From Patescibacteria group bacterium AH-259-L07 (GTDB lineage: Bacteria; Patescibacteriota; Patescibacteriia; UBA2591; UBA6264): 39,504 bases of DNA. A model generated the notes under the pieces. It was not told the origin of the DNA. It saw only the letters and a list, made by a program, of their open reading frames with translations, and made no database searches. The position numbers and the translations under genes are program-made. Shown piece after piece: positions 17,154 through 24,324 of this stretch. The stretch lies in NCBI GenBank assembly GCA_027718005.1, contig JALLOP010000001.1, positions 1 to 39,504 of the forward strand, read 5' to 3'. The stretch's first letter is position 1. Every line of letters starts with the position of its first letter.

Positions 17154-18484
<1,331 letters not shown>

Positions 18485-18488
<4 letters not shown>

Positions 18489-18694
18489 ATCTCACCTTTT
18501 TCAACATCAACTTCTAAAATATCAGCAATTTGAGCATCAAAAATACAAAAATCTGCGCCAGAGTCTATAAGCGCAGCATATCGCAATTCCTTCCCGTCGG
18601 CATTGATTTTAATAGGAGTAATTGGTTTAAGAAGTGATAATCCGAAATATTCCGATCTCTGCGGAAGAAGTAATTTAAGGTAGGGAAATTTCAT
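18485..18694 (-). pseudogene. Truncated paralogue of the retropepsin-like aspartic protease (69 aa, ends just after the DSGAD region)
   Basis: ALIDSGADFCIFDAQIADILEVDVEKG aligns with residues of the 134-aa protein at 21603..22007. The stop overlaps the murE ATG (ATGA). Confidence 0.55.
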
Positions 18695-18894
18695 AACAAA
18701 GAAAAACCACCAACATAAGGAATAATTTTTGTTGGCACGCGAAAGAGGATCGGATCTTTATAACCTTTCATTTTAGCTTTTTCTATTACTTCTTTTACTG
18801 TTTTGCCGCTTGCTACAACTGTCTTTTCATCGCTTTTTAAACCAATCCATAAACCTTTATATTTTTTACAAATTTCAGTCCAATCAATTGCCAT
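18691..18894 (-). CDS. Small DUF5678-like protein, copy B
   Basis: MAIDWTEICKKYKGLWIGL...KTVVASGKT..EVIEKAK.KGY. I count 43 of 65 positions identical to copy A by hand. ATGA overlap with the downstream protease fragment. Confidence 0.6.
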   Translation of the reverse strand: MAIDWTEICKKYKGLWIGLKSDEKTVVASGKTVKEVIEKAKMKGYKDPILFRVPTKIIPYVGGFSLL

Positions 18895-18942
18895 AGTAAC
18901 ATTTTACCATAAAAAAATTTTTTGTAAATACCTACTTGTTTA

Positions 18943-20433
18943 CTACTTTGCTTTTTTAATAACTTTTACTATTCCCTTCTCCGCATCCACTTCCACGAAA
19001 TCACCGTCTTTTAAAACCTTGGTGACTTTAGCCACGCCCACTAAACAAGGGATTCTAAATTCGCGAGAAACAATGGCAGCATGAGAAGCAATACCCCCCT
19101 GTTCGGTGATAATCGCACCAGCTTTCTTCATGGCTATAATCATCTGTGGGTTAGTAGAAAAAGAAACTAAAATATCACCCTTCTCAAGCTTTTCCAGATG
19201 ACCAACACCTATCACTATCTTAACCGTACCAGTAACCTTGCCTACACAAGCGACGTTTCCTTTAAGTTGTTTAACTTGTTCCACTTCTTCTCCTTTTATC
19301 TCTAAGAAGACCCTTATCTTTTTTGCCCCCTCTCCCACGTAAACAGATTCTTGATTATTATCTATATAATAAACGCATAATTTCTTTCTTCTAAAATAAA
19401 GTTCTCTAATTTCATCTTTTTTATATTCATGGGGTAAAATATATTTAAAAAATTTAAGAGGAAGGTGCCATCTTTTGGCTAGTTCTTTTTGGATCAACTC
19501 ACAGGCATAAAATCCATGAAAAAGCACTTCTTTACGATACTGCTTATAATAAGTTTGATCTCTGATAATAAAAAATCTCTTTCTTAATAATTTACTAAAA
19601 CCTAACTCCTTTTCCATTCTATCCTGTTCTTTTTTGATCTTTTCCAGTTCATTCTTTTTTTCTAAATACATTTTTCTCAATCTTTTTATATCATTTTTTA
19701 TAAGCAACTGCTTTAACTCTTTTTGAAAGTAATTAAAATCTAAGGCAGGCCCAACATATCCGAAATTAATCCAACAATATTGTTTCTGATGTTTCTCTAT
19801 CCATTTTCTAGTTTTGGTAGAATTTAATCTCAAATTTTCTTTTAATATTTTCATGGCTATCCTTAATAAATCCAGCCTTTCCTCTGTCAGATATAATGAC
19901 CTAATTGGGCTGGATAATAATCCAAAGATCTGTACTGATGTCTGATCTATTTTTTTATTTTTGAGTTTATTCTTAATCTCTTGTATTAATCCTTTGGCAA
20001 TATAATTATTAGAACCATATTCTGTTAAAGGCGCAAGTTGACCCCATTTATTAAGATTTAACATCTGTTTATTAATTTGCTTAAAATAATCAACAAGCTT
20101 ATCTTCTCTAACCTTAAAAATATCTTTGTCTTCAATCAATTTAGCGATACGGATAACTTCCTTGGCGTATTTATCTGTATACCTATTCATCTTTTTATAA
20201 AACTTATCATTGAAAAATAGATTGTAAATCTTTTTGCCAAATTTATGAAAATCTTCTTGGCTCGCAAAAAATTCTACCCCTTTCTCAGAAAAAATTAACA
20301 TTATAGGATTCAAATTCTTCCTAAAGAAAGGTCTAATCTTTGTCCCCCACGACTTAGCAAATATATAAAAAGGAAACAAATTAGCTTGTCTCTCTTGAGT
20401 AACAAATTCCCACTTTATTTTTTTATGAGACAT
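18943..20433 (-). CDS. Protein with C-terminal PEP-utilising-enzyme mobile (swivel phosphohistidine) domain and an uncharacterised 400-aa N-terminal region
   Basis: The C-terminus (ILVSFSTNPQMIIAMKKAGAIITEQGGIASHAAIVSREFRIPCLVG) is the classic swivel-His motif. Confidence 0.8.
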   Translation of the reverse strand: MSHKKIKWEFVTQERQANLFPFYIFAKSWGTKIRPFFRKNLNPIMLIFSEKGVEFFASQEDFHKFGKKIYNLFFNDKFYKKMNRYTDKYAKEVIRIAKLIEDKDIFKVREDKLVDYFKQINKQMLNLNKWGQLAPLTEYGSNNYIAKGLIQEIKNKLKNKKIDQTSVQIFGLLSSPIRSLYLTEERLDLLRIAMKILKENLRLNSTKTRKWIEKHQKQYCWINFGYVGPALDFNYFQKELKQLLIKNDIKRLRKMYLEKKNELEKIKKEQDRMEKELGFSKLLRKRFFIIRDQTYYKQYRKEVLFHGFYACELIQKELAKRWHLPLKFFKYILPHEYKKDEIRELYFRRKKLCVYYIDNNQESVYVGEGAKKIRVFLEIKGEEVEQVKQLKGNVACVGKVTGTVKIVIGVGHLEKLEKGDILVSFSTNPQMIIAMKKAGAIITEQGGIASHAAIVSREFRIPCLVGVAKVTKVLKDGDFVEVDAEKGIVKVIKKAK

Positions 20434-20550
20434 AATAATGCTTATAAATTAATCGTATTAAAGCGGCTAAACTATTTCTTGATAATTTTAACTACTCCCT
20501 TATTTGCCCACACATCAGAATAAATTCGGTGCGGAGTAAATGATATAAAA

Positions 20551-21495
20551 CTACAATGTGGTGATAGGCCTGCTCTGAACAACGTAAAATCTTCCACTGT
20601 CTAAACACCACTCAATGTCCTGCGGAACCTTGTAATGCTCCTCTATTTTCTGACATAACTTGGCCAGTTTCAATATTTGTTGATTGGTAAGTTTTTGTTT
20701 TTCCTGTTTTGATTGAGGAACTTTTGCCCGTTTCACTCCTCTTCTTAAACATTGTGTAATCATCATATTTTGCTCAGATATATTAATATCTAATAAACAC
20801 CAATCTTTCTTATGTATTATATAGGTATCAGGCGTGATTTCTCCTCCCACAATCGCCTCTCCTAAACCATAACCTGCCTCAATAACCATTTGATCTCTGT
20901 CCTCAGTCACCGGATGAACGGTAAAACAAATACCTGATATTTCAGATTGAATCATTGCCTGTACCACCACGGCAACCGATACTGCTTGCTTATGCAAACC
21001 TTTTTCAAACCGATAAAAAATAGCCCGCGGCGTAAACAACGATGACCAGCATTTTTTAACTGATTCAAGTAAATTTTTTTGAGTCACATTAAGATAGGTC
21101 TCTAGTTCCCCCGCCCATGACGCAATAGAAGAATCCTCAGCTGTTGCTGAGGAGCGCACTGCCACATACTTTGCTTTTAATTCTGTAAATCCGTTTAAAA
21201 TTTCTTTGCCTAATTGTTCTGGAAATTCTGCATCGTAAATTAGATCTCTAATTTTTTTTGATGCCTGCTCTACTGATTTAATATCTTTATGGTTTACCTT
21301 ATGCATTGCCGCTTCAATCTCAACCCCTAAATCTGTTTTATCTAAAAATCGATCAAATGCTGGCGCTAGTACCACAAACCCTGGCGGCACCGGAATTTTT
21401 GTTTGTGTCATCTCTCCCAACGAAGCTCCTTTACCGCCCGCAATAGCAACATCATTTTTAGATAATTGTTTAAATGATTTTATAAACTCACTCAT
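20551..21495 (-). CDS. PPDK_N-type ATP-grasp (pyruvate phosphate dikinase / PEP synthase N-terminal nucleotide-binding domain) stand-alone protein
   Basis: VAIAGGKGASLGEM...IPVPPGFVV...VAVRSSATAEDS...SWAGE...DIEW...VQSRPIT. Confidence 0.85.
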   Translation of the reverse strand: MSEFIKSFKQLSKNDVAIAGGKGASLGEMTQTKIPVPPGFVVLAPAFDRFLDKTDLGVEIEAAMHKVNHKDIKSVEQASKKIRDLIYDAEFPEQLGKEILNGFTELKAKYVAVRSSATAEDSSIASWAGELETYLNVTQKNLLESVKKCWSSLFTPRAIFYRFEKGLHKQAVSVAVVVQAMIQSEISGICFTVHPVTEDRDQMVIEAGYGLGEAIVGGEITPDTYIIHKKDWCLLDINISEQNMMITQCLRRGVKRAKVPQSKQEKQKLTNQQILKLAKLCQKIEEHYKVPQDIEWCLDSGRFYVVQSRPITTL

Positions 21496-21565
21496 ATTTC
21501 TAACTTACTTCTTTTTAATCATTTTCCCATATCTCTCACTTTCATGAGTGACAAAATTTATAAAT

Positions 21566-21588
21566 ATGTCCCTTTCTATAGGGACATT
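21566..21588 (-). terminator. Hairpin ATGTCCCT-TTCTAT-AGGGACAT downstream of the protease gene
   Basis: 8-bp perfect stem followed by an A/T-rich tract on the minus strand. Confidence 0.4.
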
Positions 21589-21602
21589 ATTGAGATGGTT
21601 TT

Positions 21603-22007
21603 TTATTTATTTTTATTTCGTAGCTTTAAATCTACCTCTTCTTTAAGCAAATCAAATTTTACCACAAAAATATCAAAAAATCCTTTTTGTCCAACAATGC
21701 CATAACCGAATTTACCTATTTTCCTTAAAAATGCGGCCTTAACCTTAAACCGCCAACTGCCGACTTCAATTTCTAAATCATGAAAATAAATAGGCTCATT
21801 AGCGCCAGTAACTCCTGCAACTTCTCCTTTTTTGCCTTTTTCAACATCAATCTCTAAAATATCAGCAATTTCAGCATCAAAAACACAGAAATCCGCTCCT
21901 GAATCAACTAATATTTCATAGGGAACGGATATATTATTGTAAATAACCTTGATAGGAATAACTGGTCTTAAAATGCGAGTACTATATTTTTTATACGGAA
22001 ACTTCAT
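21603..22007 (-). CDS. Retropepsin-like (clan AA) aspartic protease
   Basis: 134 aa with ILVDSGADFCVFD (D-S/T-G-A active-site signature) and a size typical of single-lobe retropepsin-like proteases. Confidence 0.7.
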   Translation of the reverse strand: MKFPYKKYSTRILRPVIPIKVIYNNISVPYEILVDSGADFCVFDAEIADILEIDVEKGKKGEVAGVTGANEPIYFHDLEIEVGSWRFKVKAAFLRKIGKFGYGIVGQKGFFDIFVVKFDLLKEEVDLKLRNKNK

Positions 22008-22013
22008 AATATC

Positions 22014-22211
22014 TCACAGTCCAAAGCCAACATACGGAATTAAACGTTCCGGCATTTTTGTTAAAATAGGCATTTTATAACCCTTTTTCTGCGCTTTCTC
22101 CCATGCTTCTTTAGCAGTCTTCCCAGAGGATACAACTGTTTTTTCATCATCTTCTAATGCGACCCAGAGGCCTTTATACTTTTTATAAATTTTAGTCCAA
22201 TCAATTGCCAT
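22014..22211 (-). CDS. Small DUF5678-like protein, copy A
   Basis: MAIDWTKIYKKYKGLWVALEDDEKTVVSSGKTAKEAWEKAQKKGY, immediately upstream of the protease. Confidence 0.6.
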   Translation of the reverse strand: MAIDWTKIYKKYKGLWVALEDDEKTVVSSGKTAKEAWEKAQKKGYKMPILTKMPERLIPYVGFGL

Positions 22212-22243
22212 AATTTTTATTAATTACCAATATCGTTAATTAT

Positions 22244-22272
22244 ATTTTACGATTTTGTCAAAATATTGTCAA
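22244..22272 (-). promoter_or_regulatory. Promoter TTGACA-N17-TAAAAT upstream of the DUF5678-like/protease module
   Basis: -35 at 22267-22272 and -10 at 22244-22249 on the minus strand. Confidence 0.4.
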
Positions 22273-22423
22273 GTATATATTTAATGATTTCAATTGCTTA
22301 TAAGCGTATATTAACTGTGTTTAATATATTGTCAGTAATATAATTAAAAACTAGATTATTTCTTATTGGTAATACGCTTCGCAATCCCTCGCCCTTTTTA
22401 CAAACGGTGAGGGACGATTTCTT

Positions 22424-24148
22424 TTACACTACCTCATCTTGATAACACTTCTCACAATAGACAATTTCTTTTCGCTCTGGTGCATACGTAGTTTCGAATT
22501 CATTCGGACAATGATCTTGTTTATGAAAATGTTCTACGGTATTTTTGTAAATACTATTATCTGATTTTTCTCCTGCGCATTGGCATTTTCGATGCCAGAT
22601 CTGCTTTGGCGTACGCTTATTAAACCGTTCTCGGTGACGACATTCAAAATCTTTGCGCGGTAAAGGCAAATGCATTTTTTGATAAAATGAAAATTCAAAA
22701 GGAGTAAGCTTATAATTTCTCTTACAATCCTTACAAACCAATATGTCTTTTAAAACTCCTTTATCTGCTTCCTCAATAGTATCAGGCATTTTATCTAATG
22801 GAATGGTCTCTTTGCCACGCGTTCTCATTTCTTTATCCTGCCACTGGAATCCTTTTTGCAAAGTCTTATCCCGCGAAAGTGGAAAATAATCTTGTGCAAG
22901 CGTCTCGTTATAGCCAAAAAGGGAGAGGGATGGTGGGAAAAATAAACCATAAACGCCTTCTTCTTTCATCGAAGTAATAATTTGATCCTTTGTTTTATTA
23001 TATTCTTCTTTAGAATACTGTTTATTTAAAATAGAATAGCTTCCTTTTTTAAGCCCGATACAACCGAAACAATCAGAGCACGTATGACAATTATCACAAT
23101 ACTCGACATCATTACAGATAAAAATATGAGATGAGTATTTACATCTATTAATCTGAAGCGCACTCATAACCTCTAAACAACGCTCTGGTTTATAATAGAT
23201 ATTGTTGCCATCCCAACAATCAATAGGATCCTCGGCATCAGCAAGATACGCACACTCCTTGGCATTGCTTACATCAAAAATCATATATGCGTCATGGCAG
23301 TTATATAGATAGTCACCAACAGCCCTTACACATTTTGTTTGAAACGCATATTTAACTAACGTCCTTGAAGTAAACTCGCTCAAATGTTTTTTTGTCTCCT
23401 CAATACTTTTATACGAAGCAAGAATTTCTTGTTTCTTTTTCTCATATTCTTCCTTACTATACTGCTTATTTTCAATACAGTATGATCTATGCCGAAGGTT
23501 GGTGCAAAGTATTAAATGGTGTGAATCACGAACATCAAAACAAAAAAGCAAATCAGTGCTTGCCTGACATCGTTCACTAAAAAGGCAGTTATAACATTTT
23601 CGACAATCAACACATTCGTAACAAAGCTCTGAATCATATATCCATGAAGAGTCTACTACTGACCTGCAATTTTGAATAAGCCGACTATAATAACAATCCT
23701 CATTTTGCTCTGCAGCAAAAATAAGATAGCAATTCTTATTATCTGCACTCATATTAGCATACTCAGAATTAACATGCCTCATATTTACCAATGCCATCCG
23801 CGGAACCTTTTCTTGTAATGCCTTAAACTGCTCAAAAAATGACTTATCAGGATTATATGTCATACCATAGTTTTTCGCGTCCCAATTATCACTCCACCAA
23901 CATGTTACACAATACACAGGAAATAATGTGCCTGATGGATACACGGCTATAATAGTTTTATTACACCGATCGCAGGTACGTTGATATAATGTGCGCTCGT
24001 TTCTGTGCGCCAACCGCCATTGCATCCTGCATTGCCAGCATTGTGTTGGTGCAGGTGCACTGACTTTTTCATAAAAATCAAAATCCTCCGGTTCAATCGT
24101 GAACTTTTGTTTACAGTTTTGACAAATTTTTGTTTGTGACTCATTCAT
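22424..24148 (-). CDS. Cysteine-rich multi-zinc-ribbon protein of unknown function
   Basis: Dozens of CxxC pairs. N- and C-terminal modules share C-x2-C-K-x2-[FY]-x-[IL]-x-P-x-[DE]-F-x-F-Y-x-K. The ATG at 24148 (MNESQ) is preferred over the upstream TTG. Confidence 0.75.
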   Translation of the reverse strand: MNESQTKICQNCKQKFTIEPEDFDFYEKVSAPAPTQCWQCRMQWRLAHRNERTLYQRTCDRCNKTIIAVYPSGTLFPVYCVTCWWSDNWDAKNYGMTYNPDKSFFEQFKALQEKVPRMALVNMRHVNSEYANMSADNKNCYLIFAAEQNEDCYYSRLIQNCRSVVDSSWIYDSELCYECVDCRKCYNCLFSERCQASTDLLFCFDVRDSHHLILCTNLRHRSYCIENKQYSKEEYEKKKQEILASYKSIEETKKHLSEFTSRTLVKYAFQTKCVRAVGDYLYNCHDAYMIFDVSNAKECAYLADAEDPIDCWDGNNIYYKPERCLEVMSALQINRCKYSSHIFICNDVEYCDNCHTCSDCFGCIGLKKGSYSILNKQYSKEEYNKTKDQIITSMKEEGVYGLFFPPSLSLFGYNETLAQDYFPLSRDKTLQKGFQWQDKEMRTRGKETIPLDKMPDTIEEADKGVLKDILVCKDCKRNYKLTPFEFSFYQKMHLPLPRKDFECRHRERFNKRTPKQIWHRKCQCAGEKSDNSIYKNTVEHFHKQDHCPNEFETTYAPERKEIVYCEKCYQDEVV

Positions 24149-24156
24149 AGTTTTTA

Positions 24157-24218
24157 AAGTTTGGATACATATATTACTCCTTACAAACTTCAAGGTTCTG
24201 ACGAAGTCAGGTTCTTAT
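24157..24218. repeat. Conserved 34-nt hairpin (AAGTTTG-20 nt-CAAACTT) fused to a family 2 repeat (TTCAAGGTTCTGACGAAGTCAGGTTCTTAT)
   Basis: The hairpin shares its stems, and 14 of 20 loop positions, with 33956-33989. The family 2 part matches 40-88. Confidence 0.8.
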
Positions 24219-24248
24219 CAGCCCAAGGCTGACCCGCCTAAATTTAAA

Positions 24249-24320
24249 TGTCCCCAGAGGGACTCGAACCCACATTTCAGGCTCCGGAAGCCCGCGCTCT
24301 ATCCATTGAGCTATGGGGAC
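24249..24320 (-). tRNA. tRNA-Arg (anticodon CCG)
   Basis: Manual cloverleaf: acceptor GTCCCCA/TGGGGAC, D arm GCTC/GAGC, anticodon loop TTCCGGA, T loop TTCGAGT (one U-U in the T stem). No CCA is encoded. Confidence 0.85.
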
Positions 24321-24324
24321 AAAT

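Follow-up and report, generated by a model that had tools for sequence, protein, structure and literature searches.

A two-gene candidate small-molecule dikinase of the rifampin phosphotransferase superfamily in a Patescibacteria genome

The A and B genes and their domains

We analyzed a stretch of 39,504 nucleotides (the window) from Patescibacteria group bacterium AH-259-L07 (assembly GCA_027718005.1, contig JALLOP010000001.1), on whose minus strand two full-length open reading frames (ORFs), free of stops and frameshifts, lie 117 nt apart in different frames. Gene A (20551–21495) codes for a stand-alone ATP-grasp protein of 314 aa, and gene B (18943–20433) codes for a protein of 496 aa with a substrate domain followed by a swivel phospho-histidine domain. 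By analogy with characterized enzymes, A and B quite likely make up an ATP-dependent, two-component dikinase for small molecules, within the rifampin phosphotransferase (RPH) superfamily.

Gene A would be the charging subunit. A Pfam search assigned residues 18–313 to PF01326 (PPDK_N, E 2e-102), and the protein aligned residue for residue with positions 2–316 of RPH-Lm, being coextensive with the isolated ATP-grasp construct 5HV6. In NCBIfam models of the PRK06241/RPH type, residues 1–314 of gene A fell on model positions 1–314. Alignment to 5FBS/5HV6 placed K22, R114, T133 and E295 of gene A at RPH-Lm K22, R117, T136 and E297. All the residues that position the ATP phosphates in the RPH superfamily (K22, R117 and T136), which are required as judged by mutagenesis (Lys22, Arg117, Thr136; PMC4844700), are therefore matched, E295 takes the place of the Mg ligand Glu297, and the terminal Q-x-R-P motif is kept. 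The initial annotation, made from the letters alone, had described a complete PPDK_N ATP-grasp (GRASP) domain; this holds with the catalytic residues intact, and gene A is apparently a competent nucleotide-binding subunit.

The C-terminal part of gene B (residues 386–496 and stop codon, 18943–19278) is the swivel domain. Residues 417–487 matched PF00391 (PEP-utilizers; PEP, phosphoenolpyruvate; E 1e-24), the sole Pfam match of the protein, and residues 340–493 fell on positions 742–890 of 891 in the PRK06241/RPH-type models. The swivel motif reads T443-x-x-G446-G447-x-x-x-H451, and the segment GGIASHAAIVSREFRIPCLVG contains His451 (codon 19081–19083), the predicted phospho-carrier, which aligns with the catalytic His of PEP synthase (PpsA) and, in the profile alignment, with His825 of RPH. 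This column is invariant: in 62 diverse modules (a module being a variable domain plus a swivel), His451 and G446–G447 were each present in 62/62 and T443 in 60/62. Residue 449 (19087–19089), the regulatory phospho-Thr position of PpsA and of pyruvate phosphate dikinase (PPDK), is Ala in gene B (GGIASH), and 52 of the 62 modules have Thr at this site, two residues before the catalytic His.

The remainder of gene B (residues 1–385, 19279–20433) is a mostly helical middle (MID) domain. Searches of Pfam, NCBIfam and PDB sequences left residues 1 to ∼380 (∼370 in the PDB search) without a match, and the corresponding domains of 44 homologs matched no Pfam model either, in keeping with the initial annotation, which had called a region of ∼400 aa unassignable. 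An AlphaFold2 model of full-length gene B, built from a 44-sequence alignment, had a predicted local distance difference test score (pLDDT) of 93.6 and a predicted template modeling score (pTM) of 0.91. When it was compared with the PDB by Foldseek, the top six matches were RPH-Lm entries (478–587 columns, E 6e-12 to 5e-11), and all non-RPH matches covered the swivel alone. The MID domain modeled on its own (pLDDT 93.5) again returned RPH first (5HV2, 5HV3; Foldseek probability 1.00, TMq 0.42–0.46, 367 columns), followed by generic helical bundles with TMq ≤0.23. Profile searches of the region, which had been recommended with the annotation, gave no Pfam family, but the gene B family profile aligned to RPH 613–866 (E 5e-30), with the MID part on RPH 613–760. 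Because the structural matches and the profile alignment agree, we read the MID domain of gene B, as modeled, as a distant, remodeled relative of the rifampin (RIF)-binding domain of RPH and not as a TIM barrel. The proposal that an RPH-type layout is here split over two polypeptides stands, the RIF-binding domain being the only meaningful structural match of MID.

The family is large. In an exhaustive HMMER search with gene B, 24,382 representatives passed E ≤1e-3 and 1,877 passed E ≤1e-30; many are proteins of 480–520 aa that align with gene B over its full length. A word-indexed homolog search returned 5 matches only. A metagenome scan with the single sequence found no relatives, but a scan with the orthogroup alignment did.

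The best NCBIfam and PDB sequence scores of gene A are to PEP synthases, and genes of this kind are routinely labeled 'PEP synthase'. Both observations would fit a plain PEP synthase divided over two genes, with MID as a degenerate PEP-binding domain, the outcome against which the initial annotation had set its own proposal. However, no PF02896-type TIM-barrel domain was found by Pfam search in gene A or gene B, as had been seen from the letters; the variable domain precedes the swivel in gene B, whereas the TIM barrel follows it in PpsA; and MID is mostly helical in the AlphaFold2 model. Scores against the PpsA models TIGR01418 (352.6 vs. a cut-off of 598) and NF005057 (340.8 vs. 739.75) stayed below threshold, and the host genome has a complete ppsA of 774–786 aa, including the TIM-barrel portion, on another contig (C70; L082/L103). 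A maximum-likelihood tree of GRASP domains, an analysis that had also been suggested with the annotation, placed gene A apart from PpsA-type GRASPs, in a clade of 18 sequences (support 100/99) of which 10 stand alone beside modules and 8 are fused to them. A split PpsA was rejected on these grounds and is extremely improbable.

The nearest neighbor of gene A in this tree is the GRASP of locus L010 (65%) and not those of same-family genomes. A recent breaking of a fused gene was considered as the origin of the split and rejected: stand-alone GRASPs of 305–345 aa recur in many genomes, and the end of gene A coincides with the boundary of the ATP-grasp domain. The host genome also encodes a fused 831-aa RPH-type GRASP-MID-swivel (SWIV) paralog (contig C101; L081/L102). 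The genome has three swivel-His enzymes, and the GRASP of the fused protein falls in the clade of gene A.

The catalytic block and the proposed reaction

In RPH-Lm, Arg666, Glu667 and Lys670 perform the second phosphotransfer, and the R666A and E667A substitutions abolish this step; distant clades without the rifampin contacts still preserve the block (PMC4844700). By hidden Markov model alignment, the RPH-Lm block R666-E667-Y-P-K670 corresponds to K297-Q298-Y299-R300-K301 of gene B (codons 19531–19545), so that the basic residues are retained and Glu is replaced by Gln. Among the 62 modules, the R300 position is R or K in 54 and the K301 position is K or R in 50.

We propose the following reaction course. 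Gene A would bind Mg-ATP, and the swivel of gene B would dock on it, allowing His451 to attack the β-phosphate with release of AMP and, later, of Pi. The phospho-His domain would then swing back onto the helical domain of gene B, where the K297/Q298/R300/K301 block would hold the phosphoryl group in place to be handed to a bound small molecule at a hydroxyl (or enol). The net reaction would be ATP + X-OH + H2O → AMP + Pi + X-O-phosphate. The physical interaction of A with B, the phosphotransfer and the kind of substrate are here deduced from homology to RPH and to the two-component enzyme HpeHI; by analogy with characterized relatives, the likeliest candidates for X are hydroxylated aromatics or other xenobiotics, antibiotics and scavenged metabolites.

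Several points weigh against a two-component small-molecule dikinase. First, MID is distant from the RIF-binding domain (TM <0.5, and a Foldseek E of ∼0.05 for the domain alone). Second, no gene in the genomic slot that holds A and B, be it for a phosphatase, a transporter or a pathway, hints at a substrate. Third, the host genome is 75.6% complete, and further acceptor modules may exist. Finally, gene B has Gln298 (CAG) where RPH has Glu667, its single departure at the catalytic site as judged by alignment; its closest homologs read Y-Y-K-E-Y-R-K, with Glu at position 298. Across the 62 modules this position is D or E in 39 and non-acidic in 23. Since Gln still forms hydrogen bonds and 23 modules do without an acidic residue, Q298 may be tolerated; it may also weaken the second step. 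The initial annotation had named a mutated swivel His or mutated ATP-grasp residues as the findings that would speak against a dikinase; both sites are intact.

Is the pair a genuine rifamycin-resistance enzyme, that is, a split RPH? The best structural matches of gene B are RPH-Lm entries, and rph-like genes have been annotated in genomes of the candidate phyla radiation (CPR) (PMC8651080). Nonetheless, the scores against the RPH equivalog model NF041857 were 295.7 (gene A) and 57.1 bits (gene B) vs. a cut-off of 999, and those against NF000283 were 209 and 43.2 bits vs. 1700; none of the curated NCBIfam cut-offs was approached by A or B. The MID domain of gene B is ∼14–17% identical to that of RPH with a TM of ∼0.45. 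Furthermore, distant RPH clades lose the RIF contacts and keep the catalytic block, and a clade-N member confers no RIF resistance (Stogios et al., PMC4844700). We consider a split RPH very unlikely.

The acceptor might alternatively not be a small molecule. Gene B would then be a relay or regulator like Enzyme I of the phosphotransferase system (PTS), passing phosphate to another protein, or else to a polymer or precursor of the cell envelope. The swivel domain is common to PTS Enzyme I, the locus adjoins murE in three same-family genomes, and no substrate-pathway genes lie nearby. This is quite improbable when set against the RPH phosphotransfer block, retained in its basic residues, and the small-molecule-binding RIF-binding domain as the only structural relative over the whole domain. 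In addition, small molecules are the substrates of every characterized member that has this middle domain (PMC4844700, PMC12167813), and the adjacency to murE fails in most other loci.

The tRNA-Arg/murE slot and the arrays of CPR/DPANN genomes

Genes A and B lie in a variable slot (18485–24321) between scpA-scpB-tRNA-Arg(CCG) and murE-rpoB. The upstream boundary is the tRNA-Arg(CCG) gene (24248–24321, minus strand; ARAGORN) and the downstream boundary is murE (17154–18488, minus strand; Pfam Mur_ligase_M/C); both also border the slot in the related genomes G001, G003 and G018. In the window, the slot contains, in order, a Cys-rich protein, an upstream module (21603–22211, minus strand; Pfam) made of a DUF5678 gene (22014–22211) and a 134-aa retropepsin-like protease gene (21603–22007), genes A and B, and a downstream module (18485–18894, minus strand) made of a second DUF5678 gene (18691–18894) and a truncated, 69-aa protease remnant (18485–18694). 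In G001, of the same genus (murE 80% identical), the slot is empty, and murE follows the tRNA after 12 nt. In the same-family genome G003 (L096) it holds three dikinase modules, a GRASP gene with one internal TAA, and one further module, and in G018 (L097), another member of this family, there are six modules, a His_Phos_1 gene and a GRASP gene.

Across the same-family genomes, GRASP orthologs are 59–61% identical and murE 60–62%. Because the divergence is similar, the data fit a dikinase locus that has long been resident in the family. The pair itself may have come in as a replacement, by transfer into the same slot, since gene A does not group with same-family GRASPs and, in the module tree, the gene B orthogroup is not represented in the sampled same-family slot arrays. 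A classical tRNA-integrated island was rejected: the 3′ end of tRNA-Arg has no att-like repeat in the slot, and no integrase was seen. The initial annotation had suggested that the pair came in together with the flanking protease modules; this finds no support, as such modules adjoin none of ∼135 related loci and the same-family genomes hold GRASP and dikinase modules in the tRNA-Arg/murE slot without them.

The two DUF5678/protease copies form direct repeats that bracket A and B, with 74–87% nt identity over 71–139 nt; the DUF5678 protein and protease of the downstream module have 69% and 50% aa identity to the upstream copy. In principle, these repeats could mediate deletion of A and B. The 69-aa protease copy overlaps the start codon region of murE by 4 nt. 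Between the upstream protease gene and gene A (21558–21595, minus strand) there is a 7-bp hairpin (TGTCCCT/AGGGACA) and, after it, a T-rich tract. Together they could be a terminator, which would leave A-B with a transcription start of its own. In a promoter and terminator scan, counts were not above those of shuffled sequences.

The state of the slot bears on a further explanation, namely that the locus is a decaying remnant, all that is left of a shrinking array, with gene B impaired or inactive in the second phosphotransfer and the pair maybe heading for loss as in G001. The slot is empty in the same-genus G001 and holds 4 to 6 modules, or more, in genomes of the same family, the truncated protease copy indicates local rearrangement, and the array-embedded His_Phos_1 of the relatives was not found in the host genome (75.6% complete). 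The Glu-to-Gln change, set against K-E-Y-R-K in the closest homologs, points the same way, as E667A kills the second step in RPH (PMC4844700). On the other hand, neither ORF is shortened, the conserved residues are otherwise intact, the AlphaFold2 model of gene B is very confident, and Gln can still hydrogen-bond to His; the 23 of 62 modules without an acidic residue at position 298 argue that one is not strictly required across the family. Decay is therefore unlikely, and we retain a working two-component dikinase as the preferred reading.

In genomes of CPR and DPANN, acceptor genes commonly occur as tandem arrays with a single GRASP gene (at least 10 modules at L098/L015 and at L002, and 6–7 at L011 and L023). 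Copy number is patchy among 40 relatives of the host genome: 19, 11, 10 and 8 matching stretches were found in genomes of 0.7–1.1 Mb, and many relatives have PpsA only. Four array-bearing relatives have exactly one A-type GRASP each, 59–61% identical to gene A. Within arrays, the middle domains are ∼17–20% identical and the swivels ∼55–60%, and in the module tree paralogs cluster by orthogroup across genomes, not by genome. From the low MID identity and the orthogroups that span genomes, it follows that the arrays, as read from their sequences, are old sets of distinct specificities. Among the better metagenomic relatives of gene B are a 1:1 pair whose genes stand in the reverse order (L104, 41%) and arrays of 4–5 modules ending in GRASP (L105–L107). 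Fused GRASP-MID-SWIV chains with a related MID occur at L112 and L113 (833–836 aa) and in P0122, and 1:1 pairs at L104 and L010; judged from these sequences, fusion and fission in the module family are fluid.

These data suggest that (i) A and B are the smallest form, at 1:1, of a CPR/DPANN system that sets one GRASP beside many ancient, strongly diverged acceptor modules; and (ii), more tentatively, and with the odds slightly against it, this form is the minimal unit of an undescribed CPR/DPANN-wide modular system, in which a conserved charger serves interchangeable acceptors of ancient orthogroups, presumably each with its own substrate, that are gained, lost and swapped beside tRNA-Arg. If (ii) is true, it is the acceptors that pass from genome to genome, and the charger remains in place, as the absence of the gene B orthogroup from the same-family arrays would indicate. 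A partial literature search found no paper describing the CPR/DPANN arrays.

Other features of the arrays were also observed. Some arrays are single chains: unbroken table-11 ORFs of 1154–2937 aa contain up to 7–8 modules, each a variable domain plus a swivel His. Giant examples are found at L031 (2–8758, 2918 aa), L044 (1–8814, 2937 aa) and L052 (4997–10981, 1994 aa), with other long multi-module ORFs at L048, L045, L007 and L040, and some start with one GRASP domain. A His_Phos_1 gene lies inside two same-family dikinase arrays (L097 6998–7825 in G018; L099 2492–3328 in G002). The GRASP with the internal TAA (L096 5872–6651; G003:C4:41694–42632) is the only A-type GRASP of G003 and its four neighboring modules are intact; the TAA marks a pseudogene or else an error in the assembly. 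At one array end (L101 1177–2440, G023) there is an ORF fusing an EamA transporter to a riboflavin kinase, with a second EamA ORF. Several contigs labeled 'uncultured Gammaproteobacteria' or 'Methanosarcinales' bear typical CPR/DPANN arrays. Among them, L015 (= L098, CAZAGY010000007.1) is identical to a contig of G014, a same-family relative of the host genome, and the public taxon labels of this and similar contigs therefore look wrong.

CPR/DPANN organisms have very few genes, yet a relative of the host has up to 19 stretches of this family in a ∼0.8 Mb genome. From so many copies in very small genomes, we infer that the family must matter to the host-dependent lifestyle, perhaps by detoxifying compounds of hosts or competitors or by trapping scavenged metabolites. 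With one charger and one acceptor, A/B is the simplest experimental handle on it, and the tRNA-Arg/murE slot, which is empty, single-copy or multi-copy in close relatives, provides a natural series for array growth and shrinkage. The analysis also corrects a likely annotation error, as such genes are usually labeled 'PEP synthase' or 'PEP-utilizing enzyme', and it cautions against counting them as rifamycin-resistance determinants.

Comparison with known dikinases

PpsA and PPDK share with A/B homologous ATP-grasp and swivel domains and, by analogy, the His-mediated two-step chemistry. They differ in having a TIM barrel after the swivel in place of a helical variable domain before it, and the regulatory Thr two residues before their catalytic His is Ala in gene B. 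RPH-Lm (5FBS/5FBT/5FBU/5HV1; PMC4844700) is closer in layout: its order of ATP-grasp, substrate domain and swivel is the gene order A then B, it provides the sole structural match over the whole length of gene B, and its R-E-Y-P-K block is K-Q-Y-R-K in gene B. In contrast to RPH-Lm, A/B is divided between two proteins, the MID domain is ∼50 aa shorter, and the RIF-contact residues are not recognizable.

The split layout is already of an established kind and is not novel, because the two-component dikinases PpsAB (phenylphosphate synthase; Thauera/Aromatoleum), CreHI (Corynebacterium) and HpeHI (Rhodococcus) have been characterized (PMC12167813). HpeI is the ATP-grasp subunit (PDB 9GOJ), and HpeH consists of a RIF-binding-like domain and a swivel; the enzyme depends on the conserved His, and HpeH can by itself pass phosphate between substrates (PMC12167813). 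Like A/B, these enzymes have separate subunits encoded by adjacent genes and no TIM barrel, and the chemistry of A/B is expected to be alike, with ATP converted to AMP, Pi and a phospho-substrate via phospho-His. HpeH, CreH and the PpsA subunit of PpsAB are ∼45% identical among themselves (PMC12167813). Gene B, at 496 aa, is smaller than HpeH (∼71 kDa), and it matches PRK08296-type models (∼570–630 aa, swivel at the end) through the swivel alone. Unlike those of HpeHI, CreHI and PpsAB, the host of A/B has a reduced genome without aromatic-catabolism genes near the pair, and the relatives of A/B occur in one-to-many arrays. Since the PDB sequence score of gene A is lower for HpeI (186 bits) than for RPH (218 bits) or a PpsA (261 bits), the A/B pair is probably a lineage, and a split, separate from these enzymes.

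When compared with the CPR/DPANN arrays, A and B belong to the GRASP clade and the module family of the array members, and their locus differs in having a single acceptor module and no embedded His_Phos_1 phosphatase. A/B is an uncharacterized small member of a known enzyme kind, and its context in the CPR/DPANN arrays is the more novel aspect.

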